From a virus (Duplodnaviria; Heunggongvirae; Uroviricota; Caudoviricetes), in IMG/VR virus record IMGVR_UViG_3300036956_000151: 28,061 nt of DNA. The stretch is one strand, 5' to 3'. Made by a program: the position numbers and the translations under genes. The notes beneath the pieces are model-generated. The model was not told the origin of the DNA, did no database searches, and saw only the letters and a list, made by a program, of their open reading frames with translations. Position 1 is the stretch's first letter. The number at the start of each line of letters is the position of its first letter. This document shows positions 1,902 through 22,868 of this stretch, in pieces.

Positions 1902-1978
1902 GGGCCGTTAGCTCAGTTGGTTAGAGCAGGCGACTCATAATCGCTTGGTCGCTGGTTCAAGTCCAGCACGGCCCACCA
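1902..1978 (+). tRNA. tRNA with CAU anticodon; anticodon and T arms match what I recall of enterobacterial ileX (tRNA-Ile2, lysidine type) better than elongator tRNA-Met; 77 nt including encoded CCA
   Basis: Acceptor stem GGGCCGT/ACGGCCC, D-arm TAGCTCAGTTGGTTAGAGCA, anticodon loop CTCATAA, T-arm GGTTCAAGTCC, 3' CCA; sits directly after rpoD as ileX does in E. coli. Confidence 0.9.
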
Positions 1979-2028
1979 TACGTATCAAGCACTTAGGCCA
2001 GCCTCACGAGGGCTGGCCTTTTGCTTTC
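1933..2028 (+). repeat. att direct repeat copy 1 (tRNA 3' half from anticodon loop plus terminator); part of the intact tRNA
   Basis: Near-identical to 12407-12502 and 27555-27660. Confidence 0.85.
1996..2027 (+). terminator. Rho-independent terminator of the tRNA (GGCCAGCC-N7-GGCTGGCC followed by TTTTGCTTT); repeated with the att copies at 12470-12501 and 27620-27651
   Basis: 8-bp GC stem plus T-run seen directly. Confidence 0.65.
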
Positions 2029-2036
2029 TGGGCCAA

Positions 2037-2055
2037 TGTAAGCACCTTGTAAGCG
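2037..2055 (+). promoter_or_regulatory. Two TGTAAGC heptamers (2037-2043, 2049-2055) at left end of element A; candidate integrase arm-type sites
   Basis: Same heptamer occurs three times at 12257-12287 at the opposite end, just upstream of the element A integrase start. Confidence 0.4.
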
Positions 2056-2530
2056 CCAGCAGAGGATGCGGGCCTGATGTCTGATGCGTACGTAACTTGT
2101 GTGCGTACCAGACTGCGTACTCGTGCATTGCACGGCCTCACATTGCGGTGCTGGCTATCGCCTTCCAAGCCCACGTTTAAAACGGAGCCTTCGACGGCGT
2201 GCTGAATACTCCGGTTTGAAATCGGAATATTCCCAGCTCCGGACAGCCCTGCGGCGACAGCCTCAAACCTTGACATCTTTGAACATCGGGCCTGACTCGC
2301 AGTAGAGGATGTCGCCGTTCCCGATACCCTGCAAAACCTACAAATCGTCGGCTTTGTGCAAGGGGCGCGAGGCATCCAACGCCATAAGGCACATATCGAA
2401 AGCTGCCTAGCAAGGGGGTGGCGTTTCGCCCACCCCTTTGATGCTCCCCGCAGGGTCGGGAAAACTACGCTATTTCCCGCAGTTTCAAGTTCGACCGTGG
2501 GCACCCTCGCCGGCCCCACCTCGCCCATCA

Positions 2531-2564
2531 ACCAAATTGGTAGATGGAGCAACCAATTTGGTTG
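2531..2564 (+). promoter_or_regulatory. Two adjacent palindromes ACCAAATTGGT and CAACCAATTTGGTTG; operator-like
   Basis: Perfect inverted repeats about 90-120 bp upstream of the Rha-like ORF. Confidence 0.35.
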
Positions 2565-2596
2565 CCACCAGCTTTACCGACCAGCACGGCGAAGGG

Positions 2597-2618
2597 GTGT
2601 CCTCAGTTTTGAGGATAC
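2597..2618 (+). promoter_or_regulatory. Palindrome GTGTCCTCA-GTTTT-GAGGATAC; operator-like, homologous to the site at 15443-15466 in element B
   Basis: Inverted repeat seen directly; 38 bp upstream of the ATG at 2657. Confidence 0.4.
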
Positions 2619-2656
2619 GTCGCCCCCGTCGCCAGCAGATACCCCATCAGCAAACC

Positions 2657-2803
2657 ATGAGCAGCCGCGAGATTGCGGAGCTAACGGGCAAGTGTCACGG
2701 CAACGTGAAGCGGACCATCGACACCTTGTCTGCCAAGGGAGTTATCCCTTTCCCTCATGCTGAGGAAAAGGCTACTGCGGGCCGTCCGCCGCTTGGCCTC
2801 TGA
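2657..2803 (+). CDS. Short ORF (48 aa) resembling only the N-terminal DNA-binding region of Rha/antirepressor-family phage proteins; possibly a truncated remnant
   Basis: MSSREIAELTGKCHGNVKRTIDTLSAKGVI matches the Rha-type N-terminal motif (SxEIAEL-GK-H-NV-R-I); no obvious SD. Confidence 0.4.
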   Translation: MSSREIAELTGKCHGNVKRTIDTLSAKGVIPFPHAEEKATAGRPPLGL

Positions 2804-2994
2804 GGGTGGCGTTTTTAAAACGCCCCCCCATGGAGAGCCAATATGGAGGCCATTTGCGGGAATGGCTCAGTTCTGAGCTATGAAGACCAGAGCCGGAATC
2901 CCTGTTCCACTCCCCATCCCGCCCAAGCCATGAATGCCGGCTGTCGCTGCAACCGTCGTGTGTAACTCTGCCCTGTAACCGCCAGCCAGAAGCG

Positions 2995-3016
2995 AAAAAC
3001 CCGGCGCTTGGCCGGG
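2995..3016 (-). terminator. Rho-independent terminator for the minus-strand gene 3054-3371 (CCCGGC-N5-GCCGGG followed by T5 on the minus strand)
   Basis: Hairpin plus A5 on the plus strand, about 40 bp past the stop codon. Confidence 0.5.
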
Positions 3017-3053
3017 TCTGTCCGTAGTGGGTACTAAACTTCAGGCGACATCT

Positions 3054-3371
3054 CTACCCCTCGGGGGAGCCAAAGTTGCGCAAAACCACACGGGCTAGGC
3101 TGCTGGTGCTGCAAAAACGGTCCTCGATGGCTGACATGACCGAGATGTTCAAGTCCTCGATTCTTGCCGACAGCCCGCGAAGCAATAGGGACTCGTCAAA
3201 GTTCTCCGATGTAAACGTTTCGCGCAGCATTCGGCACAGCCTGTCGATTTCCCAGGTTGCTTCCAGTGCTATGTCTCGGCGAGCCATGGACATAACTATA
3301 TCGTCGCCCTCTTCGCGGAGGTCTTGGTTGGTTCCGGTTTGGGGAAGGCTATCTAGTGTCGTTGCTTGCAT
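3054..3371 (-). CDS. Hypothetical acidic protein, 105 aa (MQATTLDSLPQTGTNQDLREEGDD...)
   Basis: ATG preceded by AAGGAG at 7 nt; terminator downstream; the plus-strand ORF over the same DNA is Ser-rich antisense-like. Confidence 0.5.
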   Translation of the reverse strand: MQATTLDSLPQTGTNQDLREEGDDIVMSMARRDIALEATWEIDRLCRMLRETFTSENFDESLLLRGLSARIEDLNISVMSAIEDRFCSTSSLARVVLRNFGSPEG

Positions 3372-3580
3372 GGTGGCTGCTCCTTGTGTGCGGTGATGTT
3401 CTCCGCAACCCCTTCCTACGGGGGCGGCGGAACCGTGCGGGGCTAGGAATACCGGACACAAGGAACCGGCCAGCCTCGCGGCTGCCCCACACGGCCCGCC
3501 ATTGAACAGGCGTCGCCATGCTTACCGACGTAAAAAAACCGCTTGCGCGGCCCTGTCGGCCTTGTGATTTCCGGGTTCCT
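3372..3580 (-). promoter_or_regulatory. Conserved ~200-bp structured non-coding leader (module 1), homologous to 15029-15235 in element B; possible promoter/5'-UTR or small RNA
   Basis: Alignable by eye with element B (shared GTTCTCCGC, GAACCGTGC, CCATGCTTACCGACGTAAAAAAACCGC-type blocks); conserved stems with compensatory changes; ends in SD plus ATG. Confidence 0.4.
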
Positions 3581-3760
3581 ACGCCCGCCCCTCTGTTTCG
3601 GGGGAAACTGAATCATGGGGCAGGCCGCTCGTTTCAGTCAATATAAAAATGATAATGAAATAGATTGGCTTGCCATAAATTTCGCTTGTACCATCGGCAT
3701 ACGACCACGGGCGTCTCGCAAGATGCAGACTGGCGCTCGCTCAAGACACAAGAGGCCCAC

Positions 3761-4735
3761 ATGAAGCGATTTGTTGTCATCCTCGGAGTATTGATGCTTG
3801 GCGGCTGCGCTACCGCCTATAAGCCTGAAGGTCACGGCGGAGGTTATACCGACGCTAGGTATGGCCCAAACCTCTTTGCAGTCACCGTGCGGGCCAACGG
3901 CTATACATCTTCTGACCGTGCAACAGAGCTGGCAATGCTACGAAGCGCGGAGCTTACATTGCAGAATGGATTCACCCATTTCGTCATCGCCGAGAGGGCT
4001 CAAGAGGCAAAGACCAGCACATTCAGCATGCCGACAACCACTTACACGACCGGAAATATCAACACGCAAGGAAATGCCGCTTACTTGAACGCCCAGACAA
4101 CAACTACAGGCGGGCAAACCTTCAATATTTCGAAGCCTCGCGTTTATTACAAAATAGAGTGTTACCGCAGTCAGCCCGACAGAGCCCTCGGGCTCGCTTA
4201 CGACGCCCGTGCAGTCTGCGAATCGCTTGGCAGCAAGTACGGCGTTGATTGCCAATCTCTCATCGCCACCAATCTCAAGCCTACCCATTCCAATGCCGGC
4301 GAAGTGCGTGCGGAGCTGTCCGCCGACCTGCCAGCCGGCTGGCAACGGCAAACTCTTTCTGACGAACTAGCGCAAAGAGGGGGAAGGCTGTTTGCCACTA
4401 ACAAGACCATAGACGCTGGGGCCTTGGTTTCGATGAGCAAACGGTCTGAAATTGTCGACACAGTCGTTTACGCCAAATCATTGAGAGCAAACCAAGCGAG
4501 CCTCATCGATAAAAGCGAGTGGTCTGAACTATCTGAAATCACCATAAACGGTCGTCGAGCATGGAAATTCTGGGTCACAGGCCTCTCAAAACGCGGCATG
4601 CAGGTTCAGTACCTAGGGACCGTTATTGAAGGCGAGTCACAGATGATTTACGTGAATACCTGGACTTCAAAGAAGAACTTTGACGATAACCGCACTGCTC
4701 TGGAGTCTCTCGCTGGCAGCTTTTCAGGCCTTTAG
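3761..4735 (+). CDS. Predicted lipoprotein, 324 aa, unknown function; low-GC cargo gene
   Basis: MKRFVVILGVLMLGGCATAYK (signal peptide with LGGC lipobox); AGAGG SD; GC visibly lower (~50%) than surroundings; Thr/Asn-rich linker segment. Confidence 0.8.
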   Translation: MKRFVVILGVLMLGGCATAYKPEGHGGGYTDARYGPNLFAVTVRANGYTSSDRATELAMLRSAELTLQNGFTHFVIAERAQEAKTSTFSMPTTTYTTGNINTQGNAAYLNAQTTTTGGQTFNISKPRVYYKIECYRSQPDRALGLAYDARAVCESLGSKYGVDCQSLIATNLKPTHSNAGEVRAELSADLPAGWQRQTLSDELAQRGGRLFATNKTIDAGALVSMSKRSEIVDTVVYAKSLRANQASLIDKSEWSELSEITINGRRAWKFWVTGLSKRGMQVQYLGTVIEGESQMIYVNTWTSKKNFDDNRTALESLAGSFSGL

Positions 4736-4768
4736 GCAGCGCAAGCGACGCCCGACCCCAAAGCGGCT

Positions 4769-4796
4769 ACGCGTGAAAGTGGCGTCTTTCACGCGT
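4769..4796. repeat. Palindromic hairpin repeat ACGCGTGAAAG-N6-CTTTCACGCGT; second copy at 5429-5456
   Basis: 11-bp perfect stems; two direct copies ~660 bp apart bracketing the repeat-rich block. Confidence 0.6.
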
Positions 4797-4907
4797 AACG
4801 ACGGGGCCAAGGGGAGGCCTCGTAGTCGGCTGGGTTGGCGATGAGCGGGGGAGAAGCAGGCTTGGTTTCCAGGGTCGGTTTCCAGCAGAACAGACCTTTT
4901 TCGCCTC

Positions 4908-4977
4908 CTGAAACCTGAACATCTTTCAGCATTCGCCGTCATGCCGTGCGCTTTTCTGTGCGCGTTGCCGGCTGCAT
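4908..4977. repeat. ~65-bp direct repeat (TGAACATCTTTCAGCAT...GTGCGCTTT...TTGCCGG), second copy 5148-5217; iteron-like
   Basis: Two copies ~240 bp apart read directly. Confidence 0.55.
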
Positions 4978-5260
4978 TACATCGAGGACCGGGCCAGCCA
5001 TGCGGTCGATGGCCACCTTGTGTTGTTCTTCAGGATTCAGGATTCAGCCGGGCCGGCACAGTGCTAGCACCGGGCTTGCCCGGTACTGGGGCTGCTTCGC
5101 ACTGCGGCCTGACGTGAAGACGCCCTCCCGCCCGGTCGTTTTGCTTCGTGAAAAGTGAACATCTTTCAGCATCGCATCGGGATGCTGTGCGCTTTCGCGT
5201 GCGGATTGCCGGAATCGGGGCAGGGCCAGTGCCGTCCATCTTCTGGACGCCATCGGTAGC

Positions 5261-5308
5261 GCCGATTTCAGCGCCGATTGACCGGCCGATTGACCGGCCG
5301 ATTGGCTG
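5261..5308. repeat. 12-bp tandem repeat GCCGATTGACCG, about four units, outer units degenerate
   Basis: GCCGATTTCAGC GCCGATTGACCG GCCGATTGACCG GCCGATTGGCTG. Confidence 0.6.
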
Positions 5309-5428
5309 CGCACCGAGCTGCGTACCACTGCCCTGCGTACCCGACTGCCGACGAAGGCCACGCCGCCAGCAGCGGCCACCAGTTCCAGAAAAGCGGCCTA
5401 CTCGCCAGCGTAGAGCTAGTAGCGGCCA

Positions 5429-5456
5429 CGCGTAAAAGTCGCGCCTTTCACGCGTG
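5429..5456. repeat. Second copy of the palindromic hairpin repeat (ACGCGTAAAAG-N6-CTTTCACGCGT)
   Basis: See 4769-4796. Confidence 0.6.
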
Positions 5457-5471
5457 ACGACGCGTGCGAGG

Positions 5472-5499
5472 GGAAGGAAGGAAGGAAGGAAGGAAGGAA
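5472..5499. repeat. (GGAA)7 tetranucleotide microsatellite
   Basis: Seven perfect GGAA units. Confidence 0.9.
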
Positions 5500-5771
5500 C
5501 TCTCTACGAGCGCGTTTGATGCGCCTGGCTACCTGCGCTTCCCTCAGACACGCAGTGCGTTCTTCGGTCTCCAGACGGGCGAGTGCACAGGCCATCCGGG
5601 CCAGGGTCAGAACTTACTGTTTCAGGCTGGCGGATTCTCGTTCCAGGGCGGCGAGTCGTTCAGCCTCCCCAAAACTCCCCAAAACCCCCCATTTATGGGT
5701 GCCGTCCTCCCCAAAACTCCCCACACCACCTTTAAGAGGTGGGGGGAAATGGGGACCATGTGGGGAATGGG

Positions 5772-7745
5772 TTACTTGAGCCACAGCCAGCCCTCCCGAA
5801 GGACGATGCAGCCACGGTTCACAAGTCCGGTAATGGCAAGCTGCGCCCTGTAACGTTTCTGGTCCGGGTCACATGCAAGGCGGGCGCGGGTCTTGTCGAT
5901 AGCCTCTTCCAGTTCAACGCAGGGCCGGCCAGGAGGTCCGCCAGCTTCCCCGAAGTGCCGCGACTCTTTCAGCAGGTCGCGCAGTGCGTCGAGGATGATT
6001 CGCTGATTCCCGCCGGTCGGCAGCTTCACCCGCCCCACGGCATCGGCGGCGCGCTCTTCGGGAACGACGCAGCAGCTTGTGATTTCGTCGCCGTCCTCGT
6101 CGGCCCCGATTTCCACCACTTCCAGCCGAAACGGTTTTCCCAGGTCGTCATTGCCATCCTTGCTCTTCGCGGCCGTCCATTCCCGGCGGTCGTCGGTGCG
6201 GCTCACCTCGATGGCGGCATCAAGCGCAGCGTGAAGGCTGGAATGCCCCCGCAGGCCCTTGGACGCATCCTTGCCGGTGTGATGCACCAGCAGCACCAGC
6301 CCGCCAAGCTCCGCCTGTAGCGCCTTCGTCGCGGCGATGATTTCGCCCATTGCGGCGGAGTCGTTCTCGTCGGCACCCGGCGCGGCGCGGTTCAGCGTGT
6401 CGAGGGCCAACACGCCACCCGAGTAACCGGCAGCGCGGGCGGCGCTCACAAGGTCGGCGCGGTCGGCAGCTTTGCGGATGTCGAGCGGTTGCAGCAGGAA
6501 GCGGAATGCGCCGGCAAGTGGGCCGTGTTTCTCTTGGTGCGCCTGGACGCGTTGCGAGATGCCGGCCTCACCCTCAAGGGCAACATACAGCACTGGGGCG
6601 GCCTTCACGCGGCACCCGAACCACGGCCGGCCAGCGGCGACAGCGGCGAGCATGTCGAGCGCCAGGAAGGATTTGCCGGACCCGCTTGGGCCATACAACG
6701 CGGCAATCCCTTCCTCCGGGAGCACACCACGCACCCGCCAGCGGACAGGGGGCAGCGCGGCCAGTTCAGACGGTGCCAGCAGCCGGAAGCGTTGCGAGTG
6801 CTTCTTCGGATTGGCCAGCAGTGCGGCCAGGGCGTCGAGGCCGTCCCGCTGGTGCATGTCGTTGGCGTCAAAGTTGGCGGGCGAGCCTTCCGGCATTTCC
6901 ACCCATGCGGCGGCGGTGTCCTTGGCGATGCGGGCGCAATGCGACTCCTTGCCGGCATCGGCCACCAACACCCGGCGGGCCAGCGGGTAGCGGTCGGCCA
7001 GCGCCTTGGATGCGGCTTCCATCCGGCCGGCACCGAAGCAGACCGCGGCCGGCGCGTTCGCGGCCTGGTGGCAGCTCCACGCCTGCCCGACGCCCTCGCA
7101 CAGGTAGAGCGTGACGCCTGCGCCCTGGTGCGGGATGCGCCCCACCACGAACAGGCCGTCCATCGGCAGGCCGGGGGCGTTCAGTTTCTTGCCATCGGCC
7201 GGCGGGATGAATTGCGCGCTCTTCAGGGTGCCGTCAATCGCGTAGCACGGCACCACGAGATAGCCGGCCACCGCCTCGCGGGCGATGGTCAGCGGGCCGC
7301 CATAGACGCGCAGGCCGGCGGGTAGGCCATGCTTGCGGGCAATGTAGCCGTGTTCCGCCGTCGCTGGTGCGCAGGATGCCCACAGGGCGGCCACGTCGAG
7401 CGGCGGAGCCTTGGACGGGGCTTCGTGCATCCGGCGCTCGGTCGTGCGTTGTGGGCGGTTCTGGTAAGTCTGGCGCGGTGCGTCGTCGCTCCATCCAGCG
7501 GCGCGGGCCAGTGCGAAGAGCGTACCGGCCTGGATGCCGCCATCCTCGCGGATGCTCCGCCAGACGGCGCGTGCGTCGGCCTCGTTGCGATAGTTGCCGG
7601 CTCCGGCGCTCCAGTCATGGAAGTCCTCGAAGTCGAGGCCGGCAGCCTTTGCAGCCATGCCAGCCCGGACCCATTCGGCGCGTTCGGCACCGGGGTCGAG
7701 GGCGTGCAAGGCAAAGCGGGCGCGGTCAAACTCGCGGGCATCCAT
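5772..7745 (-). CDS. Primase-helicase-type replication protein, 657 aa (PriCT-like N-terminus, Toprim-like centre, RecA-type ATPase C-terminus); ORF-track N-terminal 71 aa rejected
   Basis: MDAREFDRARFALHALDP...GLDFEDFHDWSAG; CEGVGQAW and VLVADAGKE; Walker A YGPSGSGKSFLALD and VLLVHHTGKD; ATG overlaps upstream stop (ATGA). Confidence 0.85.
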   Translation of the reverse strand: MDAREFDRARFALHALDPGAERAEWVRAGMAAKAAGLDFEDFHDWSAGAGNYRNEADARAVWRSIREDGGIQAGTLFALARAAGWSDDAPRQTYQNRPQRTTERRMHEAPSKAPPLDVAALWASCAPATAEHGYIARKHGLPAGLRVYGGPLTIAREAVAGYLVVPCYAIDGTLKSAQFIPPADGKKLNAPGLPMDGLFVVGRIPHQGAGVTLYLCEGVGQAWSCHQAANAPAAVCFGAGRMEAASKALADRYPLARRVLVADAGKESHCARIAKDTAAAWVEMPEGSPANFDANDMHQRDGLDALAALLANPKKHSQRFRLLAPSELAALPPVRWRVRGVLPEEGIAALYGPSGSGKSFLALDMLAAVAAGRPWFGCRVKAAPVLYVALEGEAGISQRVQAHQEKHGPLAGAFRFLLQPLDIRKAADRADLVSAARAAGYSGGVLALDTLNRAAPGADENDSAAMGEIIAATKALQAELGGLVLLVHHTGKDASKGLRGHSSLHAALDAAIEVSRTDDRREWTAAKSKDGNDDLGKPFRLEVVEIGADEDGDEITSCCVVPEERAADAVGRVKLPTGGNQRIILDALRDLLKESRHFGEAGGPPGRPCVELEEAIDKTRARLACDPDQKRYRAQLAITGLVNRGCIVLREGWLWLK

Positions 7746-8194
7746 CACATCACCCCCAGCACGCGCACGAAGGCCGCGACAACGGCGGCGGTCACGGATG
7801 CAGCGGCGAAGACAACGAGCGCGTCGAGGCTGATGGAACCGCGTTGCTGTCGTGCGTTCAGGGCGGCAGCGGTTGCCGGGTGCTGGCGGTCGAGCGCGTA
7901 CTCGGTGATTGTGCTGCGGCAATGGGGGCGGCGGATGTCGCGCTTGCAAAACGCCCACCCGCCATACTCCAGCGACTTAACTGACGCGGCCAGCCGCCAC
8001 CCGTCGCGGTAGTCGGCCTGGTTCTGCGGGCCGGTCAGCAGCGCCTGAAGGGCTTCGTAAGCCCGGGTGTTGTCGTTCGGCCAGCTTGCAGCTTCAACAG
8101 GCGGCAGCGTCTCGGGAAAGAGGTCTTGGGCGTTATAATGGCGAGGCTTGTCCAGGGCGCTCGACTTCTTTTTGGGGGTCGGGCGCTTTTTCAT
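7745..8194 (-). CDS. Hypothetical protein, 149 aa, basic N-terminus and hydrophobic C-terminal helix; coupled to primase gene
   Basis: ATGA overlaps at both ends. Confidence 0.6.
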   Translation of the reverse strand: MKKRPTPKKKSSALDKPRHYNAQDLFPETLPPVEAASWPNDNTRAYEALQALLTGPQNQADYRDGWRLAASVKSLEYGGWAFCKRDIRRPHCRSTITEYALDRQHPATAAALNARQQRGSISLDALVVFAAASVTAAVVAAFVRVLGVM

Positions 8195-8520
8195 GCCGCA
8201 CCAGCCTTTCGGGCCTTCGCTTCGACGAGCGCCATTTCATTGGCAGCGAACTCCTGACCTGCGCTGCCGGCGGCCTCAATGACTTCGACCGGCAGGCGGT
8301 ACTGCGCGAAGGCGCACGACTCGCCGAAGCGGTTGGGACGTTGGATAGTCTCCTTCGCGACGCCCCAGCCCCATTTGGTCAGGAGGAAAACGACGGCGGC
8401 AGTCCGGTAGATGCCCAGCGTCCTCCAGCTTGCAATGGGGCCAATGGCATTGCCAGCCAGAAACGCAGCGAGCAGGCGGGCGCTCTGGGTGCCGTGCTTG
8501 GGGTAGGTGCCGGCCATCAT
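8191..8520 (-). CDS. Hypothetical protein, 109 aa
   Basis: Start overlaps upstream stop (TAATG); stop overlaps downstream start (ATGA). Confidence 0.6.
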   Translation of the reverse strand: MMAGTYPKHGTQSARLLAAFLAGNAIGPIASWRTLGIYRTAAVVFLLTKWGWGVAKETIQRPNRFGESCAFAQYRLPVEVIEAAGSAGQEFAANEMALVEAKARKAGAA

Positions 8521-8750
8521 TACGCCACCTCGCCAGAGGTAAGGGCCTCAACGGCCGCGGCGTCCCACAGCAAGAAGCGGTTGCGGCACTTGACCGGGCG
8601 CAGGCCGAAGTAATGCCCGTCACGGCACAGGGCGGCGCGCAAGGTCTGCGGGCGCACCTTCAGGACGGCGGCGGCCTCAATGGTGGAGTAGTTGCGCAGG
8701 ATGGACGCGATGTCCGTGCGCTTGGTGGTGGGTGTGTTTTGGTGTTGCAT
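8520..8750 (-). CDS. Small HTH DNA-binding protein, 76 aa, AlpA/excisionase-like; first gene of the replication operon
   Basis: STIEAAAVLKVRPQTLRAALCRDGHYFGLRPVKCRNRFLLWDAAAVEAL; AGGAGA SD; same motif pattern as the element B gene at 23916-24098. Confidence 0.7.
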   Translation of the reverse strand: MQHQNTPTTKRTDIASILRNYSTIEAAAVLKVRPQTLRAALCRDGHYFGLRPVKCRNRFLLWDAAAVEALTSGEVA

Positions 8751-8843
8751 TCGCTGGTTCTCCTGCTCGGAAAACCACCGTTGAGAGTCGCCGGATGCAA
8801 CTCAATCAACGCTGGCGAACGCAATGTGTTGCGCCGAAGTCTA

Positions 8844-8859
8844 TTAACAGCCGGCTGTT
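8844..8859. promoter_or_regulatory. Perfect 16-bp palindrome TAACAGCCGGCTGTTA in the promoter region of the element A replication operon
   Basis: Lies between the stop at 8863 and the HTH gene start at 8750. Confidence 0.35.
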
Positions 8860-8862
8860 ATG

Positions 8863-9456
8863 TTACCCGCCATTTCCAAGATGCTGATTTTTAAGGGTCT
8901 TTAGGCTGTTTAGAAATTTGCGCTCTTCGCTACCCCCCTCGGTTCTAAGTCCGTGCTCGTCAGTGAATACAACATACCCCGCGTCGCGCTGCACGACTCC
9001 ACGGCTCTCCAGTTTGTCCAGCATATCCGATGCAGTCAGGAGTCTGTTCTTGTCCCATATGGCCTTTGCCTCTAGTCGCCAGCGGATAGTAGCGGGCCGT
9101 CCTCCTTTGCGTACGACACGCTTCTGCGACGCGGACCTAGCCTGCTGTGCTCTTGCTGCTGCGGCGTAATGCTGCATCATCGGAGACAAGGGACCGACAG
9201 CAAGAATGGCAGACCTTGCAGCCGCAACGGACGCGGCGTGCGCAGCATCAACCATTGGCTGCATCCACTGACGCGTTTTTTCAGGCCACGTCTCCCTTAG
9301 AAGTCCAAGAGGCGGCTCCTGCAAAGGTAGGGTCAGCGAGCTTCTCAGCACCGACTCGAACACGGCGAGCTGGATTTCCTCGGCCCCGCGCCTGAAGTCA
9401 GCCGCGAATGATGCGGACTGACCTCCCATCCCCTGTTTTTTCAAATGCTTTGTCAT
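8863..9456 (-). CDS. Hypothetical protein, 197 aa; contains a GGRPA motif shared with the syntenic 252-aa protein of element B
   Basis: AAGGAG SD 6 nt upstream; directly preceded by conserved hairpin module 2. Confidence 0.6.
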   Translation of the reverse strand: MTKHLKKQGMGGQSASFAADFRRGAEEIQLAVFESVLRSSLTLPLQEPPLGLLRETWPEKTRQWMQPMVDAAHAASVAAARSAILAVGPLSPMMQHYAAAARAQQARSASQKRVVRKGGRPATIRWRLEAKAIWDKNRLLTASDMLDKLESRGVVQRDAGYVVFTDEHGLRTEGGSEERKFLNSLKTLKNQHLGNGG

Positions 9457-9477
9457 CGCGCTCCTTCAAGCGCCTTC

Positions 9478-9552
9478 AAAAGAGGCACCGCGCCAGGCGG
9501 GTGAAGGTTCCCGCTTTTCGGTTGGCCGACCTAGGCGCGGTGGTGGTACTCG
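9478..9552. terminator. Conserved nested-hairpin element (module 2): outer stem CACCGCGCC/GGCGCGGTG enclosing inner hairpin GCGGG-N8-CCCGC plus T4; terminator-like in both orientations; homologous copy at 25028-25104
   Basis: Near-identical flanks in both elements; inner stem differs by compensatory changes (GCGGG/CCCGC versus CGGGG/CCCCG). Confidence 0.45.
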
Positions 9553-9553
9553 G

Positions 9554-9934
9554 TCAGGCGGCAATCGCCTCATTCAAGGGACACGGCTGAATCAGCACGT
9601 CAGCCGGGAGGCCGAGGCCAGAAGACAGGCGGCGAATCATCGTCACCGACAGCGGGCGCGTCCGGTTCATGATGTCGGCCACCCTCCCCCGCGGGCCGAT
9701 GTAAGGCTCCAAGTCCTTGCGCGTCAATCCGCGGGACTCCATGACGTACTCAAGGAAGGCCACCGGGTCCGGGGCTTTAATCAGGAAGTGCGCCTTTTCG
9801 TAGGCTTCCACCAGCATGGCGAGCACCTCCAGGCGGTCGGCCTCGGGGCTTCCATCAGGGGCATCCCACAGGCGTTCGATATCGGCCAGGGCTTCGTTGT
9901 GCTCGGCTTCGGTTCGGATGGGCTTCAGTTCCAT
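9554..9934 (-). CDS. higA: HigA-family antitoxin (HTH), 126 aa
   Basis: Immediately downstream of the HigB-type toxin gene; AGGAG SD; C-terminal HTH-like segment LTRKDLEPYIGPRGRVADIMNRTRPLSVTMIRRL. Confidence 0.8.
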   Translation of the reverse strand: MELKPIRTEAEHNEALADIERLWDAPDGSPEADRLEVLAMLVEAYEKAHFLIKAPDPVAFLEYVMESRGLTRKDLEPYIGPRGRVADIMNRTRPLSVTMIRRLSSGLGLPADVLIQPCPLNEAIAA

Positions 9935-9942
9935 GGCGGCTC

Positions 9943-10236
9943 CTAGATGGTTTCAGCGTCTATCCGGTCGTACTCGGCATGAGTGCCCACGAAACGGATG
10001 AACATCATGGTGGAGGTGTAACGCACAGCCGCCACCAACCGGTAGTCATTGCCCTTGATGTTGAACACCACGCGGTTGTTCGCCAGAAAGCTGGCGTTCC
10101 GGTGCGCGGCCTTGATGTCGGCCGGGGTTTGCCAGGTGGCCCGGCTTGCCTCGGCGTACCAACCACGCAAAGGGGTTTCGGCTTGCGGATGCTTCTCCCA
10201 AAACTCGCGCAGTGCTCGCAGTGCAATGATGTGCAT
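9943..10236 (-). CDS. higB: HigB-family type II toxin (mRNA interferase), 97 aa
   Basis: MHIIALRALREFWEKHP...NNRVVFNIKGNDYRLVAAVRY...IRFVGTHAEYDRIDAETI; toxin-first order. Confidence 0.85.
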   Translation of the reverse strand: MHIIALRALREFWEKHPQAETPLRGWYAEASRATWQTPADIKAAHRNASFLANNRVVFNIKGNDYRLVAAVRYTSTMMFIRFVGTHAEYDRIDAETI

Positions 10237-10319
10237 GACTCAATCTAGCATGTTACCGTTTTGGTAGCAAACACTCAGGCTTTCACCACCCGCAGCCCGG
10301 CCGCCTGCTCTTCGCCCGG

Positions 10320-10604
10320 TCAGGCGGCGATGCGTGCCACGGGTGCCCGGTCCTTGGCGCGCTCGCCGGCTGTCCAGAGGTCGCGCTGCGTTTGCAGGCG
10401 CAGCCAGTAGCCGGGCGAGGTGCCTAGCGCCTCGTGCAGGCGCAGGTCCATATCGGCGGTGACGGCGGCATGCCCGTGCAGGATGCGGGACAACATCACC
10501 CGGCTGATGCCCACATGGGCGGCAAAGGCGGTCACGCTCATATCGAGGTCTTCCAGCCAGCCGGCCAGGATTTCGCCAGGGGTTGAAGGGTCGTGCATGT
10601 CCAT
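10320..10604 (-). CDS. HigA-like antitoxin (XRE-type HTH), 94 aa
   Basis: PGEILAGWLEDLDMSVTAFAAHVGISRVMLSRILHG...ITADMDLRLHEALGTSPGYWLRLQTQRDL; follows the killer-protein toxin gene. Confidence 0.8.
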   Translation of the reverse strand: MDMHDPSTPGEILAGWLEDLDMSVTAFAAHVGISRVMLSRILHGHAAVTADMDLRLHEALGTSPGYWLRLQTQRDLWTAGERAKDRAPVARIAA

Positions 10605-10615
10605 GATGTCGGGCC

Positions 10616-10894
10616 TCAGTGGTAATCCAGATAGTCCAGCAGTTCCACGTTTCCGCCATCGAAGCGGAACACAAGCCGCCAGTTGGCTTGCACCGTCATG
10701 GCGAGGAAGCCGGCGCGGTCGCCGGACAGGCCATGCAGGCGCCAGGACGGGCGGGCGAGGTCTTCCGGGCCGGCGGCGGCGTTCAGGGCGGTCAGCATTT
10801 CCCGTAGGCGCTTGGCGTGAATCGGCTGAATGCCGGCCTGCTTGCCGGTCAGGAAGAAGGCTTCAAGCCCCTTGTGTCGGAACGATAGAATCAT
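10616..10894 (-). CDS. RelE/ParE-superfamily toxin of the HigB killer-protein type, 92 aa
   Basis: MILSFRHKGLEAFFLTGKQAGIQPIHAKRLREMLTALNAA...LLDYLDYH. Confidence 0.85.
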   Translation of the reverse strand: MILSFRHKGLEAFFLTGKQAGIQPIHAKRLREMLTALNAAAGPEDLARPSWRLHGLSGDRAGFLAMTVQANWRLVFRFDGGNVELLDYLDYH

Positions 10895-10898
10895 AGTC

Positions 10899-10917
10899 TG
10901 TAAATCATAGCTTTACA
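10899..10917. promoter_or_regulatory. Inverted repeat TGTAAA-N7-TTTACA upstream of the toxin gene; likely TA operator/promoter
   Basis: Between toxin start (10894) and integrase stop (10926). Confidence 0.4.
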
Positions 10918-10925
10918 ATGTCCGC

Positions 10926-12242
10926 TCAGGTCACAACCCGCAACCCAGGCGCCTGCCCCTCGTCCGGCTGCTCGATGCCGGCCTGCTCCAGAATCCAGCC
11001 CTCTATCTTGATGTGCCACAGGGTCAGCAGGTCGAGCGGCCGGCGGCGATAGTGCTTCTCGGCCAAGGCGCTGGGCTTGTGCCCCTGAATCTGCGCCACC
11101 ACGCCGACGGGCACCTCGCACCACTCCGCCAGGGTGCCGAAGGAGCGGCGCAGGTCATGCAGCGAGAATGGCGGCAGGCCGGCGGCTTCCATCGCTTTGC
11201 GCAGGGGTTTGAGGACTTCCACGATACGGCCATCCGCGGCCGCAGGGCTTGAGAACACCCACTCATTCCGGCGCGGCAGAGAGGCCAGCAGCGAGGCGAC
11301 GAAGGGCGTCAGCGGGATGATGCGGCCCTCTTCCTCCACCTTGTCGGCGATGTGCAGGGACTTCCATTGAAAATCCACGTCAGCCCATTTCAGGCCGGCC
11401 AGTTCCTCGCGCCTCGCGCCGGTCAGGAGCAAGGTTTGCAGGTAGGCGGCGTGCACCGGGTTCCCCAGCTTGCGGACATGCTCGAACCACAGCGGCAATT
11501 GTTCGCGGCGCAGGCTGTCGCCTTTGGTCTTCACCGCCTGCACTTGGTCCCGCACTTCGCTGGTGCGGCAGGCATCCGCACGAACGAGGCCGGCATACTC
11601 CGGGCGCTCGGCACACCAGCCAAGGAAGGCGCGCACGAGGCGGAATATCTTTGCGGCCTGCGTCGCCCCGCGGGCGTTGTTGTCCTGCATCCATGCCGTG
11701 ATGCGTGCCGGGGTCAGGTCCAATAGGCGCACATGCAGCAGCGGATGTACCATGCCGGGCAAAGTGTATTCCCCCTGCCCAGCCTTGCGCCCTCGCGTGA
11801 TGCGCTCGCCGCCGGGCTTTATGGCCTGTGCATGGTCGCGCTGTGAGGACTCGCCCCACTTGTGCGAGCGGGCCAGAACATAGGCGGCCCATGCCTCGCC
11901 AACGGTCACTTCCTGCCGTGCGGACTCTTCCCGCTTGGCCTCGATGGCGGCGCGCTTGTCGGCCTTCTCTTGGCGCGGGTCGATGCCTTGGTCAATCAGG
12001 GTTTGCAGGCGGCGGGCTTCGGCGCGGGCTGCGTCAATGCCCCACGCGCGCACGTCGCCAATCGTGATGCGAAGAGCCTTGCCGTTCAGGCGGCTTTGGA
12101 AGATGAACCCGCGCGCCTCGCTGCCGGGTGTGGCACGCACTGCGAGGCCGGGCGCTTCCGTGTCCCACAGGAAGGCTTGAGCGGTGCCGGTCGGGCATTC
12201 AAATTCGCGGATGCGGCCGGCGGTCAGCTTGTTGCGTGCCAT
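10926..12242 (-). CDS. int: Tyrosine recombinase, P4-type integrase (element A); ATG at 12242 preferred over the ORF-track start at 12248
   Basis: ~438 aa; catalytic-domain blocks LTGARREELAGL, HDLRRSFGT, HKPSALAEKHYRRR; GGAGAA SD; adjacent to att copy 2. Confidence 0.9.
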   Translation of the reverse strand: MARNKLTAGRIREFECPTGTAQAFLWDTEAPGLAVRATPGSEARGFIFQSRLNGKALRITIGDVRAWGIDAARAEARRLQTLIDQGIDPRQEKADKRAAIEAKREESARQEVTVGEAWAAYVLARSHKWGESSQRDHAQAIKPGGERITRGRKAGQGEYTLPGMVHPLLHVRLLDLTPARITAWMQDNNARGATQAAKIFRLVRAFLGWCAERPEYAGLVRADACRTSEVRDQVQAVKTKGDSLRREQLPLWFEHVRKLGNPVHAAYLQTLLLTGARREELAGLKWADVDFQWKSLHIADKVEEEGRIIPLTPFVASLLASLPRRNEWVFSSPAAADGRIVEVLKPLRKAMEAAGLPPFSLHDLRRSFGTLAEWCEVPVGVVAQIQGHKPSALAEKHYRRRPLDLLTLWHIKIEGWILEQAGIEQPDEGQAPGLRVVT

Positions 12243-12256
12243 GTTCAAGTTCTCCG

Positions 12257-12287
12257 TGTAAGCGGCTCATGTAAGCAGCTTGTAAGC
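12257..12287. promoter_or_regulatory. Three TGTAAGC heptamers (12257, 12270, 12281) upstream of the element A integrase; candidate arm-type sites
   Basis: Direct repeats read from sequence; same heptamer at the left end (2037-2055). Confidence 0.4.
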
Positions 12288-12406
12288 GGATTCTAGAACA
12301 CGCTTCAATTTCCATCAACGTCAAAAACGGAATGAATGCTTTATTTTCAATGCCTTGCTGTTTTTATGAAACGCTATTCAATGTCAAAAAACCCCGTAAC
12401 CATTCA

Positions 12407-12502
12407 ACTCATAATCGCTTGGTCGCTGGTTCAAGTCCAGCACGGCCCACCATACGTATCAAGCACTTAGGCCAGCCTCACGAGGGCTGGCCTTTTGCTT
12501 TC
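12407..12502 (+). repeat. att direct repeat copy 2 (junction between element A and element B); tRNA 3' half only, no 5' half
   Basis: ACTCATAATCGCTTGGTCGCTGGTTCAAGTCCAGCACGGCCCACCA plus terminator; preceded by unrelated AT-rich sequence. Confidence 0.85.
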
Positions 12503-12510
12503 CGGCGCCG

Positions 12511-12529
12511 TGTAGCCACCATGTAGCCA
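12511..12529. promoter_or_regulatory. Two TGTAGCCA octamers at left end of element B; candidate arm-type sites
   Basis: Same motif at 27389-27425 (three copies, one inverted) upstream of the element B integrase. Confidence 0.4.
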
Positions 12530-13590: not shown

Positions 13591-14058
13591 TCAGGTGCTC
13601 CCGGGTGCGTGGGCGGTCGCCTGGCGGCCACCAACGGCACGCAGTTCGTCGGAGAGGCTTAAGGCCTCCCGGGCGAGCGCCTGAAAGTCTGCCTGTGCTG
13701 GGGCCGACCCCGCAAGAAACTGATTGATCCTCCGCATGAGCGAATCTTGGCGCTGCTGGAGGTCCGCCAGGCCGGCAAGGATCACGTCCGCAAGGGGTGG
13801 GAGTTCTGCGCGATTCTCCCAGTCGTCAGCACGGCCGAGGAGGTAATCAGCTGAAACACCATAGACCCGCGCCGCATCGGCAAGCAGCTGGGGCGTGATT
13901 CCCTTTGGGTAGTTCGGATGCTCGGCGCGGGTCAAACGGGATGCACTCTTGATGCCAAGCCGCCGCGCGGCCTCGTCCGTGCCCAGGCATGCGATCTCGC
14001 GGGCGGATTTCAAGCGCTGGCCGACGATGCACTGCGCTACGGGTGGTCTCTTGCTCAT
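13591..14058 (-). CDS. XRE/Cro-CI-type HTH regulator, 155 aa
   Basis: HTH-like segment and motif ARVYGVSADYLLGRADD; paralogous to 20619-21212; AAGGA SD. Confidence 0.7.
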   Translation of the reverse strand: MSKRPPVAQCIVGQRLKSAREIACLGTDEAARRLGIKSASRLTRAEHPNYPKGITPQLLADAARVYGVSADYLLGRADDWENRAELPPLADVILAGLADLQQRQDSLMRRINQFLAGSAPAQADFQALAREALSLSDELRAVGGRQATAHAPGST

Positions 14059-14093
14059 GGTGGTGTCCTTCTCAATTCCAGCGTTTCAGGGGG

Positions 14094-14119
14094 CTGTGCG
14101 CCCGGTTGAAGGCGCACAG
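14094..14119. promoter_or_regulatory. Inverted repeat CTGTGCGCC-N8-GGCGCACAG between the 173-aa gene and the XRE regulator; hairpin or operator
   Basis: 9-bp perfect stems. Confidence 0.35.
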
Positions 14120-14135
14120 ATCCATCCCGCGGGTG

Positions 14136-14657
14136 TCAGGCGGCGTCGCGGCGATAGTTGCTGCCCACGTCTTCCGCTGTGCCGTTGACGAGATCCTGCA
14201 CGGTGCTGGCCATGTCGTGGATCGTCAGCAGGGTGCTATCGAGGTGCGGGCGCAGCGACTCAAGCTGGCCAGAGCCCGCGGCGGCCTTGGTGACCGCGGC
14301 AACGCCCGCGATCTTTCTTGCAGCCTCTTGAACGTAGAGATCCATCAGGTTAGCCGCGGTCTGCAGCTCACGAACCTTGGTCGGGGCGTTGCGGGAGGGG
14401 CAGAAGGCGTAGTCCGTGTCCTGGCAACCTACCACCGTGGCCTGTGCCTTGATATCTGCAGCGGAATCGCGAGCAAGGCCGATGATCGCGTCCATCGCGG
14501 TGCCAGTGCCGGCCGCATCGTCAGACTTAAGGGCGCCTTGTGCCGTGCGCACGAGGCCCATGATTGCGTCGGTGGCCTGTTGCGAATGGCGGTCAATCAG
14601 CTCGACGGTCTTCATCAGGGTGGCGAGGTTGGTGTTCTTGATGGTGGTGGTGGTCAT
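14136..14657 (-). CDS. Hypothetical protein, 173 aa, mostly helical
   Basis: GGAG SD; start 2 nt after upstream stop. Confidence 0.6.
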   Translation of the reverse strand: MTTTTIKNTNLATLMKTVELIDRHSQQATDAIMGLVRTAQGALKSDDAAGTGTAMDAIIGLARDSAADIKAQATVVGCQDTDYAFCPSRNAPTKVRELQTAANLMDLYVQEAARKIAGVAAVTKAAAGSGQLESLRPHLDSTLLTIHDMASTVQDLVNGTAEDVGSNYRRDAA

Positions 14658-14659
14658 GG

Positions 14660-15028
14660 TCAGGCGCTCCAGGCAAAGGAAAGACGATAGGCTGCTACGG
14701 GACCGGCAAGCCGGCGGATGGTGCGGTACATCGAGAGGGACGTGGCGAGGCGAGCGCGGCCGGGACGGCGCGCGGTGCGATCAGCGGCGGCGAGGGCCTG
14801 CTGTGCGGCCTCGAGCAGAGGGGCCGGCAGGAAGCTGTCAGCGCTGGTCGGACGCACGGGCGGGTAATCCATCGTCTCGGTGACGATGGCGCGCAGGGCG
14901 GACACGGGTGACGGTGCAGCAGGACGGGCACGGCCGATGCGGCGATGCGGGCCGCGAACAAGGGCGGGGCTGTGTTTGGGGCGTGAGGTGCTGCAGAGTG
15001 CGGGCGCACTGGGGGCGTGGGTAGCCAT
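14660..15028 (-). CDS. Possible protein, 122 aa, Pro/Ala/Arg-rich; start at the position homologous to the element A gene 3054-3371
   Basis: AAGGAA SD; low-complexity composition makes coding status uncertain. Confidence 0.35.
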   Translation of the reverse strand: MATHAPSAPALCSTSRPKHSPALVRGPHRRIGRARPAAPSPVSALRAIVTETMDYPPVRPTSADSFLPAPLLEAAQQALAAADRTARRPGRARLATSLSMYRTIRRLAGPVAAYRLSFAWSA

Positions 15029-15235
15029 GGTGATGTTCCTTATTTGCGGTCTTGTTCTCCGCTACCCAGCCGCCAAGCTGGGTGAGCAGAACCGTGCAGG
15101 TTGGCGGACCGGAATAAGGACCGGCAGGGTTTCCCCTCCCGCACGGCCCCGCCCAATGAGGCGATACCATGCTACGGACGTAAAAAAACCGCGCAGTGCG
15201 GCGGTTGTCCGCCTTATTTACCCGGGCCGCCAAGC
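15029..15235 (-). promoter_or_regulatory. Conserved structured leader (module 1), element B copy
   Basis: Homologous to 3372-3580; includes hairpin CCGC-N5-GCGG followed by A7 (terminator-like on the minus strand). Confidence 0.4.
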
Positions 15236-15442
15236 CCGTATCACCGTTGTTTGCAGCGACGAAAATATGATGCGCCTGGGCGCCGCTGGTGGTCAAGCAC
15301 TTATTTTGCATGTGTGGCGCCGGAGGGGAGGTGGACACATGAATCATGGGCGCCCGAGGACGGACACGGTAGGTGTCATTTCGGCCGGCGACACCCGCCT
15401 AAAATGGGTGGCCGCGGTAAGTCGAGCACGTCAGGCCGCCGA

Positions 15443-15466
15443 GGTGTCCTCAGTTTTGAGGACACC
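15443..15466. promoter_or_regulatory. Perfect palindrome GGTGTCCTC-AGTTTT-GAGGACACC; operator-like
   Basis: Homologous to the site upstream of the element A Rha-like ORF, but no Rha-like ORF follows here. Confidence 0.4.
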
Positions 15467-15553
15467 GTCACCAATGTGCAAATCTGCACAATATCCAGAC
15501 CCACGCGGCTGCCCTGGATGAAGCCGTCTGCGTCGCTTCTGAGTTTCATCGGA

Positions 15554-16459
15554 TCAGGCCTTCATGAAGGTGTCGAGCTGGGTGAAGGTCATCTGCAGCT
15601 CTGCCAAGGCGTCTTCGCGCCGGGACAAACTGAGCTCGAGGTTAGCCGGTCGAAAATTGCCGATATCCTCATAACCGCCGCGGTTGCTGCCCTTGGTCAC
15701 AAAGGCGTGCACGATCTTGATCCGCACCGCGTAATTTCCGGGAACTCCGACGGTGCCATCCTCGGCCGAGACGGCGGCTTGGTGATCGCGAAACCAGCGC
15801 TTGAGCGTGCCCACCTTGTCGTCGGTCGCCGTCATGCGCAGTTCCATCGGATCGCTTCCGGTGACTGCATCCAGCGTAGCCCCCCCGACCTTCCGTTTCT
15901 CGCCGGTGAGCGTGAAAGGCGCGTAATCCAGATCGGTCACGAACATATTGAAGGGCTGCGAGCTGTCACCCGAAAGTGCGCTTGACACCTCGATCAGGAA
16001 CAGATTCTTTCGGGCCCGCGCGGTGTTTATCGACTCCTCGAAGATCGTCCGGGCCTCAGTAGGGCTCAGGCCTCCGAAAAGGGGCGTAGGACGTCCCCAG
16101 TAGGTAGCCTGGGAAGACACCCCGCCCATACCCGGTATCAGCTTGTCCAGCGCCCCGGAATCGAGCAGGCGCATGCCGGCGCTGTTCCAGTCTCCGGCCA
16201 TCAGGTCGCCGGCAATCCGGCTTGCGGCATCGATCCGGCCGCGGAGCTTCATCGGGATGGCTTTGTTCACCTGCGCCATGGCGGCATTCTTCGCCATGCC
16301 AACACCAATATTGGCGACAGTGTTTGCCAGGATGCCACCGCCAAGCGCACCCGCCGCGCTCTTGGCTACGCTTCCCAGGGCGGAATCCAGGCTGGAAGAA
16401 ATTCCGCCCATCAAGCCCTTGGATGCGAGTGTCTTGCTCACGCCGTTATAGAGGGACAT
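15554..16459 (-). CDS. Hypothetical protein, 301 aa; N-terminal ~70 aa Gly/Ala/Ser-rich with glycine-zipper-like spacing, then a globular domain
   Basis: MSLYNGVSKTLASKGLMGGISSSLDSALGSVAKSAAGALGGGILANTVANIGVGMAKNAAMAQV...; start 5 nt after upstream stop. Confidence 0.65.
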   Translation of the reverse strand: MSLYNGVSKTLASKGLMGGISSSLDSALGSVAKSAAGALGGGILANTVANIGVGMAKNAAMAQVNKAIPMKLRGRIDAASRIAGDLMAGDWNSAGMRLLDSGALDKLIPGMGGVSSQATYWGRPTPLFGGLSPTEARTIFEESINTARARKNLFLIEVSSALSGDSSQPFNMFVTDLDYAPFTLTGEKRKVGGATLDAVTGSDPMELRMTATDDKVGTLKRWFRDHQAAVSAEDGTVGVPGNYAVRIKIVHAFVTKGSNRGGYEDIGNFRPANLELSLSRREDALAELQMTFTQLDTFMKA

Positions 16460-16464
16460 AGGCT

Positions 16465-16632
16465 TTACTCCCCGCTTCCGCCGAATCCGCCAGGCTTCTT
16501 CCCGCCCGGTGTGCCGCCGAATCCACCACCTCCACCACCACCACCAAACCCGCCTCCGCCGCCGGCACGCGTGAGGCTCTTTACGGGCTCGCCAAGCAGG
16601 AAGCCGGCGGCGTCGCTTCGGATCGCTGCCAT
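16465..16632 (-). CDS. Gly-rich small protein, 55 aa
   Basis: MAAIRSDAAGFLLGEPVKSLTRAGGGGGFGGGGGGGGFGGTPGGKKPGGFGGSGE; coupled at both ends (TGAcATG and TAAagcctATG); not in the ORF track because under 60 aa. Confidence 0.45.
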   Translation of the reverse strand: MAAIRSDAAGFLLGEPVKSLTRAGGGGGFGGGGGGGGFGGTPGGKKPGGFGGSGE

Positions 16633-16633
16633 G

Positions 16634-17800: not shown

Positions 17801-17812
17801 TTCGGGGCCTCA

Positions 17813-22854: not shown

Positions 22855-22868
22855 GTCAGGGATCGTCC

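Follow-up and report, generated by a model that had tools for sequence, protein, structure and literature searches.

An origin-like core of inverted iterons beside the primase-helicase gene of a satellite-like island

The window, meaning the whole analyzed stretch of 28,061 nucleotides, begins with rpoD (15–1892) and a tRNA-Met gene (1902–1978), followed by two tandem islands that are delimited by three copies of a 119-nt att repeat (1933–2051, 12407–12525, and 27557–27675). The first island, element A (about 1979–12406), is inserted at tRNA-Met and transcribed mostly on the minus strand. It carries, in order, an integrase gene (10926–12248), a gene for a HigA-like HTH protein (9554–9934), an int-alpA RNA (9473–9541), small proteins of 76, 109, and 149 aa, the primase-helicase gene, a block of about 1 kb (4740–5771), a convergent CC0125-family lipoprotein gene (3761–4735, plus strand), a C4-type antisense RNA (3420–3506) and, last, a 105-aa ORF. 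Both RNAs are Rfam matches of the whole window and lie outside the block, in which Rfam found nothing at E values up to 1. Because close primase homologues come from Azoarcus, Thauera, Propionivibrio, Accumulibacter, and Dechloromonas, the host of element A is probably a GC-rich Rhodocyclales-type betaproteobacterium. The element has a P4-like/GN-PICI-like layout, with att repeats at a tRNA gene, a C4/CI-type RNA, and genes for an integrase, an AlpA-type regulator, and a primase that all point the same way. It looks like a P4/PICI-like phage satellite; no capsid-remodelling or helper-interaction gene was identified.

The primase-helicase gene is located on the minus strand (5772–7745, probable start at 7745), and its stop codon at 5772–5774 confirms that the block is immediately 3′ of this gene, as the earlier note had stated. 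The protein combines PriCT_2, Toprim-like, and RepA/AAA_25 helicase domains with a C-terminal winged helix, which is predicted for the last ~90 codons (about 5775–6044). The closest solved structure to the helicase domain is RepA (1g8y, E = 3.7e-9), making it a RecA-fold, RepA-like helicase. No RepC-type family was found by Pfam scans of the element's ORFs, and the primase-helicase is presumed to be the initiator of element A.

The block had been described as repeat-dense, and no other kilobase of the window is as rich in repeats. In the block, 188 nt are covered by repeated 10-mers vs. a mean of 45 nt across the 1-kb windows of the 28-kb sequence, and only windows overlapping the block or the acidic region of rpoD approach this coverage; mononucleotide shuffles gave a mean of 14 and a maximum of 84. 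All the repeats listed in the earlier note are present. The arms of its two 28-bp hairpin repeats were found at 4769–4796 and 5428–5455, within 54-nt direct repeats (H1, 4762–4815; H2, 5421–5474) that are 83% identical. Its two ~65-bp direct repeats correspond to R1 (4899–4975) and R2 (5139–5215), about 65–75 nt long and detected as 34-nt (85%) and 31-nt (81%) segments with start-to-start offsets of 240 and 241 nt. The short tandem repeats form four arrays, namely TTCAGGA in 2.7 copies (5029–5047), GCCGATTGACCG in 2.7 copies (5273–5304, with four GCCGATT cores from 5261), a (GGAA)7 microsatellite (5472–5499), and CTCCCCAAAA in 2.7 copies (5665–5691). Two perfect 10-bp palindromes were found for the one reported, GTGCTAGCAC from 5061 and TCACGCGTGA from 5448. 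The C-rich direct repeats are present at 5664–5688 and 5706–5730; under this name the repeats of the core treated below had been listed last. Comparison of the block with plasmid and phage collections by DNA similarity gave no match. By its sequence, the block is a mosaic of three parts: gene remnants, an origin-like core, and a clade-specific repeat module.

About 430 nt of the block is gene debris (decayed coding sequence), because two of its segments match intact genes of the relative L020 and of other relatives. In L020, whose primase is 93% identical, the genes found intact here are an 89-aa ORF overlapping the primase stop, a VRR-NUC gene, a gene for a DUF5681 protein, and others. The window retains the first as a small-ORF pseudogene (5524–5784, minus strand), which likewise runs over the primase stop and is interrupted by an early TAA at 5614–5616; it is 83% identical to the 89-aa ORF over 88 aa (tblastn), and its 5′ half overlies the iterons of the core. 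The second is a 54-nt remnant of the VRR-NUC nuclease gene (5350–5403, minus strand), of which 18 codons are left with 94% amino acid identity over 18 residues to the VRR_NUC protein of L020. The VRR-NUC gene is complete in at least 23 of 69 relatives, beginning there some 170 nt past the primase stop, and independent deletions have fused the small-ORF and VRR-NUC genes in L014–17 and in L021. The statement that the block holds no convincing ORF stands insofar as no intact conserved gene was found, but it overlooks these two remnants. The same block is found in L018 and L019 (primases 99% identical), and differences within it are confined to copy number at two simple repeats, L018 having 14 extra bases at the TTCAGGA repeat and five GGAA copies. 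A 220-aa ORF called across the block in L018 was rejected, as it exists only through these copy-number differences; it runs through the VRR-NUC remnant in another frame and is Arg-rich and of low complexity.

The origin-like core (5664–5771) begins 1 nt past the primase stop codon and consists of 10-nt iterons of the GGGGAGTTTT type and variants of it, set as doublets that face in opposite directions on either side of a small palindrome. The left arm (5741–5767, plus strand, GGGGGGAAATGGGGACCATGTGGGGAA) is inverted relative to the right arm, which is made of cluster 1 (5706–5725, minus strand, GGGGAGTTTTGGGGAGG) and, 42 nt from it, cluster 2 (5664–5690, minus strand, GGGGGGTTTTGGGGAGTTTTGGGGAGG). 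The central palindrome, CCACCT-TTAAG-AGGTGG (5726–5742), is the lineage version of an AT-centred, GC-armed palindrome of the family. Read on the minus strand from 5771 down to 5664, the core runs TTCCCCACATGGTCCCCATTTCCCCCC, CCACCT-CTTAA-AGGTGG, TGTGGGGAGTTTTGGGGAGG, ACGGCACCCATAAAT, and GGGGGGTTTTGGGGAGTTTTGGGGAGG. The doublet motif GGGGAGNNTTGGGGA occurs in the 28-kb window only between 5666 and 5755, three times on the minus strand and once, inverted, on the plus strand. Element B, the second island, encodes a DnaB-like helicase and has no comparable structure after its helicase gene.

To define the conservation of this arrangement, the region after the stop codon was extracted from 89 loci of genomes, metagenomes, and viral contigs with primases 44–99% identical to that of the window, and the 80 non-redundant ones were used for counts. 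Almost all keep the layout at the equivalent position, while the iteron words differ by lineage (GGGGAGTTTT, CGGGAATCG, CGGGGAATTT, GCCACAAAA, TAACCGAAAT, CTCCGAAAT, and others) and the two arms switch jointly. A direct repeat (13 or 14 of 14 positions, 25–70 nt apart, within 200 nt past the stop) was found in 64/80 relatives and in 0/80 coding controls, and the repeats within an element are perfect (14/14) in 50 of the 80. Most relatives have a central palindrome, for instance CGCCCCTATAGGGGGCG or CACACCCCTTTAGGGGTGTG. Under a strict definition (AT-centred, at least four G/C pairs per arm), it is present within 150 nt past the stop in 62 of 78 relatives vs. 8 of 75 controls; the window's CCACCT/AGGTGG, with its A-T pairs, is weaker than the family norm and falls outside this definition. 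Inverted 7-mers are common to both flanks in 48 of the 62 palindrome-bearing relatives, with a mean of 2.5 vs. 0.33 in shuffles.

In a different explanation, the structure would be coding, with the repeats being the repetitive N-terminus of an orf89-like small protein and the DNA pattern a by-product. Gene callers predict ORFs of 74–107 aa overlapping the primase stop in L014, L020, and L021, the 3′ part of the ORF is somewhat similar between lineages at the protein level (LEQEAAGLKRQ vs. MERESASLKRQ), and the frame is open on the primase strand in 68/78 relatives. However, the opposite strand is open in 64/78 as well, so that openness reflects composition, and with both strands open in 57/78, an open frame through the structure carries no information. 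Coding would require neither the perfection of the repeats at the DNA level nor their presence as inverted copies, and the N-terminal peptides are unrelated between lineages that retain the DNA layout. In relatives with VRR-NUC beginning about 170 nt past the stop, the structure occupies the gap ahead of it. The window copy is cut short by the premature TAA, and in the block only the two simple repeats distinguish it from the near-identical L018. A coding explanation is highly improbable.

The iteron words follow the C-terminal tail of the primase-helicase. Measured in 40-residue windows, the first ~560 residues of the window protein match the L014 and L021 proteins at about 75–100% (mostly 85–100%) identity, but the last ~90 residues at only 52–55%, and the iterons change from GGGGAGTTTT to CGGGAATCG. 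L020 has iterons of the window type and a tail 97–100% identical to that of the window. When all pairs are binned by helicase-core identity, iteron sharing goes with C-terminal identity inside the bins; pairs whose helicase cores are at least 90% identical have a tail identity of 0.89 if they share iterons and of 0.55 if they do not. The tail domain and the origin appear to have been exchanged together. Since the two are physically adjacent, they could also co-vary through linkage in recombination cassettes instead of recognition.

Iteron type was not tracked by the small regulators encoded upstream: the 149-aa proteins of the window and L014 are 96% identical although the two have different iterons, while L020 has the same iterons without those small proteins. 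This independence bears on another explanation, in which the iterons and palindrome form an operator, promoter, terminator, or packaging site for downstream genes or the helper phage and are bound by another protein. Such a site would suit the position between the primase gene and VRR-NUC in many relatives, palindromes with flanking repeats are typical of operators as well, and a pac or cos function is compatible with the sequence. On the other side, a scan of 3300–5900 for sigma-70-like promoters and intrinsic terminators gave sites only outside the block, the palindrome is without a following T-tract in most lineages, and a helper-specific packaging site is not expected to track the primase tail. 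We consider it unlikely that the structure serves in this way.

The ~110-bp segment 5664–5771 is probably the replication origin of element A. The earlier note had proposed the block as a candidate origin, and there is very probably an origin-like site in the block beside the primase-helicase gene; the site is limited to the primase-proximal ~110 nt. The GC-skew inflection suggested there as a check gave no signal at the scale examined. Counting against an origin here are the lack of AT-richness in the core, which sets it apart from the PICI origins described, and its weak palindrome. Established are the arrangement of the core, how widely it is conserved, the joint variation of iterons and C-terminal domain, and the prediction of that domain's fold; we infer binding, melting, priming, and replication at the core as follows. 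The C-terminal winged-helix domain would bind the 10-nt GGGGAGTTTT iterons and their variants, whose doublets are oppositely directed on the two sides of the palindrome. The inverted doublets would load two RepA-like hexameric helicases in opposite orientations. Melting would occur at short A/T stretches, namely CTTAA in the middle of the palindrome and CATAAAT separating the two right-arm clusters, and priming by the Toprim/PriCT-2 primase of the same protein would lead to replication of the circular, excised element.

The origin of PICIs, in Gram-positive and Gram-negative bacteria alike, directly follows the 3′ end of the initiator gene pri-rep, and its two iteron sets flank an AT-rich region, the putative melting site (Fillol-Salom et al., 2018, PMC6092414). 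[quoted passage not shown] The PICI analogy offered in the earlier note holds, the core being directly 3′ of the primase gene as with pri-rep. As in the PICI origin, the core directly follows the initiator gene, here 1 nt past its stop codon, and has two iteron sets, the left arm at 5741–5767 and the right clusters at 5706–5725 and 5664–5690. In the EcCICFT073 region (L188, about 10005–10240), 9–10-nt CTGTCTACC iteron doublets stand in both orientations a few bases after pri, and the two systems have in common short iterons set as doublets, in several clusters and both orientations, and an int – alpA-like – pri layout with a single transcription direction. They differ in the initiator, which is D5_N/DUF5906/Pox_D5 in EcCICFT073 and PriCT_2/Toprim/RepA-like AAA_25 in the window. 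EcCICFT073 also has a clear ~40-nt AT-rich spacer, whereas the window core has only the A/T patches CTTAA and CATAAAT (58% G+C vs. 60% further downstream in a family-wide comparison), and the window family keeps a short AT-centred palindrome with G/C arms in place of the spacer.

The P4-like features are a primase, a helicase, and a C-terminal DNA-binding domain in one polypeptide, an origin of short iterons, and the C4/CI-like antisense RNA and int-alpA RNA of element A. The alpha protein of P4 is a primase-helicase with a C-terminal winged-helix origin-binding domain, and crr is a pair of direct repeats. The alpha helicase is of the SF3 type, by contrast with the RecA-fold, RepA-like helicase of the window. 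The P4 analogy of the earlier note fails on sequence, as the P4 octamer TGTTCACC is absent from element A and no crr-like second iteron copy was found. Over the whole window, this type I iteron is matched exactly only twice, as often as expected by chance, and in each case within element B (16264 and 22362); R2 contains a single 7/8 match, TGTTCACT. The origin doublets occur nowhere else in the 28-kb window, so there is no crr equivalent, and the putative origin abuts the initiator gene, whereas that of P4 lies kilobases away.

The IncQ plasmid RSF1010 replicates from oriV with a RepA helicase, a RepB′ primase that acts at the ssiA/ssiB hairpins, and a distinct initiator protein, RepC, that binds 20-bp direct iterons. 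Its RepA (1g8y) is the closest solved relative of the window helicase domain. Element A, by comparison, has inverted 10-nt iterons in its core and lacks a RepC-like gene, and its winged helix is fused to the helicase; H1 and H2 are direct copies, whereas the ssi sites are on opposite strands. At SV40/polyoma and papilloma origins, the initiator is also the helicase and is assembled head-to-head on inverted binding sites that flank a palindrome in the center. The core is similar in that inverted sites flank an A/T-centred palindrome and the presumed initiator and the helicase are one protein, but the protein folds and hosts are unrelated, and this analogy is one of function and not of membership.

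The clade-specific module (4762–5304) reads in the primase direction as four AATCGGC iterons, R2, R1, and H1, with H2 further upstream. The AATCGGC iterons (5261–5304, minus strand; GCCGATT on the plus strand) have a 12-nt period and form an array unique in the window. R2 (5139–5215, minus strand) consists of CCGGCAA-CCGCAC-N6-GCGCAC, also with a 12-nt period, and then ATGCTGAAAGATGTTCA. R1 (4899–4975, minus strand) is a diverged copy of R2 that is closer to the single R of L014–17, and the core common to both is CCGGCAA-NCGCAC-N6-GCGCAC followed by ATGCTGAAAGATGTTCA. One copy each of the array and the R core is found, in the same order, in L014–17, L021, L023/25, and L026 (primases 79–87% identical), with the array about 240–330 nt past the primase stop in L014–17, L021, L023, L025, and L026. 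The carriers include elements with a different integrase and without detected homologues of the 76-, 109-, and 149-aa proteins. Neither the array nor the R core occurs in the L020 contig or in any relative further removed, and no second array was found in the wider family outside the close clade. Three AATCGGC units at 12-nt spacing gave 45 matches in viral contigs; most of those inspected seemed to be unrelated tandem repeats in apparently coding DNA, and none lay beside a primase relative.

If the hairpin repeats, the ~65–75-nt repeats, and the AATCGGC 12-mers acted as iterons or auxiliary sites, the whole ~1-kb block would be the origin, in the manner of P4 ori plus crr. The array and the GCGCAC-N6-GCGCAC core are indeed kept in L023 and L026, where the primase (79%) is the only shared protein among those examined, both have a 12-nt period and are unique in the window, which suggests protein binding, and crr is likewise a pair of direct repeats. 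However, these elements are limited to a close clade, with no comparable second array in other relatives, and are missing from the 7.3-kb contig of L020 in spite of its 93%-identical primase and identical origin iterons. Co-variation with the winged-helix domain is also missing, since the tails of the window and L014 differ and their AATCGGC array is the same. Moreover, no sequence is common to the 4762–5304 elements and the origin iterons, and about 430 nt of the block is gene debris. It is thus improbable that the origin extends over the whole block. The hairpin, ~65-bp, and tandem repeats that the earlier note had emphasized are probably not the origin, being confined to close relatives (primase at least 79% identical), missing from L020, and not following the primase DNA-binding domain. 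Because the AATCGGC/R module is clade-limited and its array is the same in elements with different winged-helix tails, it looks like a binding module for another factor than the primase tail.

The primase-proximal core as the probable origin can be taken further in two joint readings, which we hold to be possible but doubtful. According to the first, the primase family of element A may represent a self-contained type of replicon, in which a RepA-like primase-helicase with its own winged-helix origin binder is loaded head-to-head on inverted doublets around an AT-centred G/C palindrome; the tail and origin may be swapped as a cassette between near-identical satellites, for example to avoid cross-talk of tandem or co-resident elements. 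According to the second, the module at 4762–5304, with its AATCGGC units, GCGCAC repeats, H1/H2 RNA hairpins, and variable simple repeats, may serve as another control element in cis that some protein other than the primase-helicase reads, comparable to P4 crr in role, not in sequence. If confirmed, the core would give precise origin coordinates and a testable rule of recognition between tail domain and iteron word for a large, uncharacterized family of satellite-like islands, whose primase has more than 1,000 homologues (about 1,160) across Rhodocyclales and other Proteobacteria. Vectors for such hosts could be built on the origin and islands annotated with its help, and it would offer a clean natural example of an initiator domain swapped along with its origin. 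The current understanding of satellite replication is unchanged by it, and the core is an ordinary feature for a satellite-like island.

R2 with its downstream flank resembles L021, and R1-Z-H1 resembles L014; because the two R copies resemble two different relatives, recombinational duplication is suggested as their source. R1 and R2 were also considered as structured RNA and set aside, with fold z-scores of about 0. A C4 antisense RNA targeting H or R was likewise rejected, since the only 9-nt complement of the C4 loop near element genes (minus-strand transcript) is at 3389, upstream of the 105-aa ORF and outside the block. H1 (4762–4815, minus strand) has a perfect 12-bp stem (4768–4779/4786–4797), closes the replication module, and faces the 3′ end of the convergent lipoprotein gene, and H2 (5421–5474, minus strand) has a stem-loop at about 5427–5456 and lies between the two gene remnants. 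The hairpins have no U-tract, and no terminator was called at them. H forms a hairpin of 13–14 bp, and in H2 one pair is changed on both sides (U-A to C-G) while another became G·U, which pairs only in minus-strand RNA. A single H with a larger loop is found in L014–17, and in L014 the loop is 11–12 nt longer while the stem is unchanged. These changes hint at a role of the hairpins at the RNA level in the primase-sense transcript, for example as a 3′-end or stability hairpin.

The 119-nt repeat that begins within tRNA-Met is present in three copies in the window (1933-2051, 12407-12525 and 27557-27675), which are 82-93% identical. These copies show two distinct satellite-like islands occupying one att site in tandem. 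The integrases of the two islands, encoded at 10926-12248 and 26041-27369, share ~80% DNA identity. Three copies of the short repeat TGTAAGC, with a spacing of ~11-13 nt, adjoin the integrase gene (12257-12289), and TGCGTAC is likewise repeated three times near attL (2085-2120). Together with a three-copy short repeat in a relative (L014 3943-3973), these look like arm-type integrase binding sites.

The second island, element B (13591-25319), encodes a DnaB-like/AAA_25 helicase (21566-22594) and a KilA-N protein (18677-19351), and carries a C4 RNA (15078-15160) and an int-alpA RNA (25023-25092). The iteron/palindrome structure was not found after its helicase gene, so the origin of element B is probably located elsewhere than 3' of that gene.

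In element A, the first island, the relatives form a decay series downstream of the candidate origin (L020, L021, L014 and the window). The array of orf89, a small ORF overlapping the primase stop, VRR-NUC and DUF5681 is intact in L020 (5216-7096). The N-terminus of orf89 is fused in frame to the C-terminus of VRR-NUC in L021 (107 aa, 6954-7277) and L014 (74 aa, 9974-10198), and the window retains an 18-codon fragment. Many lineages share a short motif, either CTGGAAC(G/A)A or CTGGAGCAA, directly past the iterons. In relatives it falls ~130-200 nt beyond the primase stop codon, and in the window at 5642-5650; it encodes LEQ of the VRR-NUC N-terminus in some lineages and lies within the small ORF in others. 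In L020 (7139-7166) and L023 (8277-8304), which differ in gene content, a conserved triple repeat, GCGGGACA with 10-11-nt spacing, lies on the downstream side of the primase at a distance of ~1.9-2.3 kb.

Within the repeat-dense block, the window and the 99%-identical metagenomic copy L018 differ solely in microsatellite copy numbers: GGAA (5472-5499) is repeated seven times in the window versus five in L018, and the TTCAGGA repeat (5029-5047) is 14 nt longer in L018. A 220-aa ORF call across the block is made or lost through these changes and was rejected as spurious.

The CC0125/CC1285-family lipoprotein gene (3761-4735, plus strand), convergent to the primase operon, is inserted between the C4 RNA and the hairpin repeat H1. 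In relatives, this slot is either empty or holds a T5orf172 gene (L014 versus L015-17), and such variability argues that it is a probable cargo hotspot. In the C4-type antisense RNA (3420-3506), one predicted loop, GUUCCUUGUGU, is complementary to ACACAAGGA (3381-3389), immediately upstream of a 105-aa ORF on the minus strand (3057-3371). This complementarity would fit P1/P4-style antisense control of that gene.
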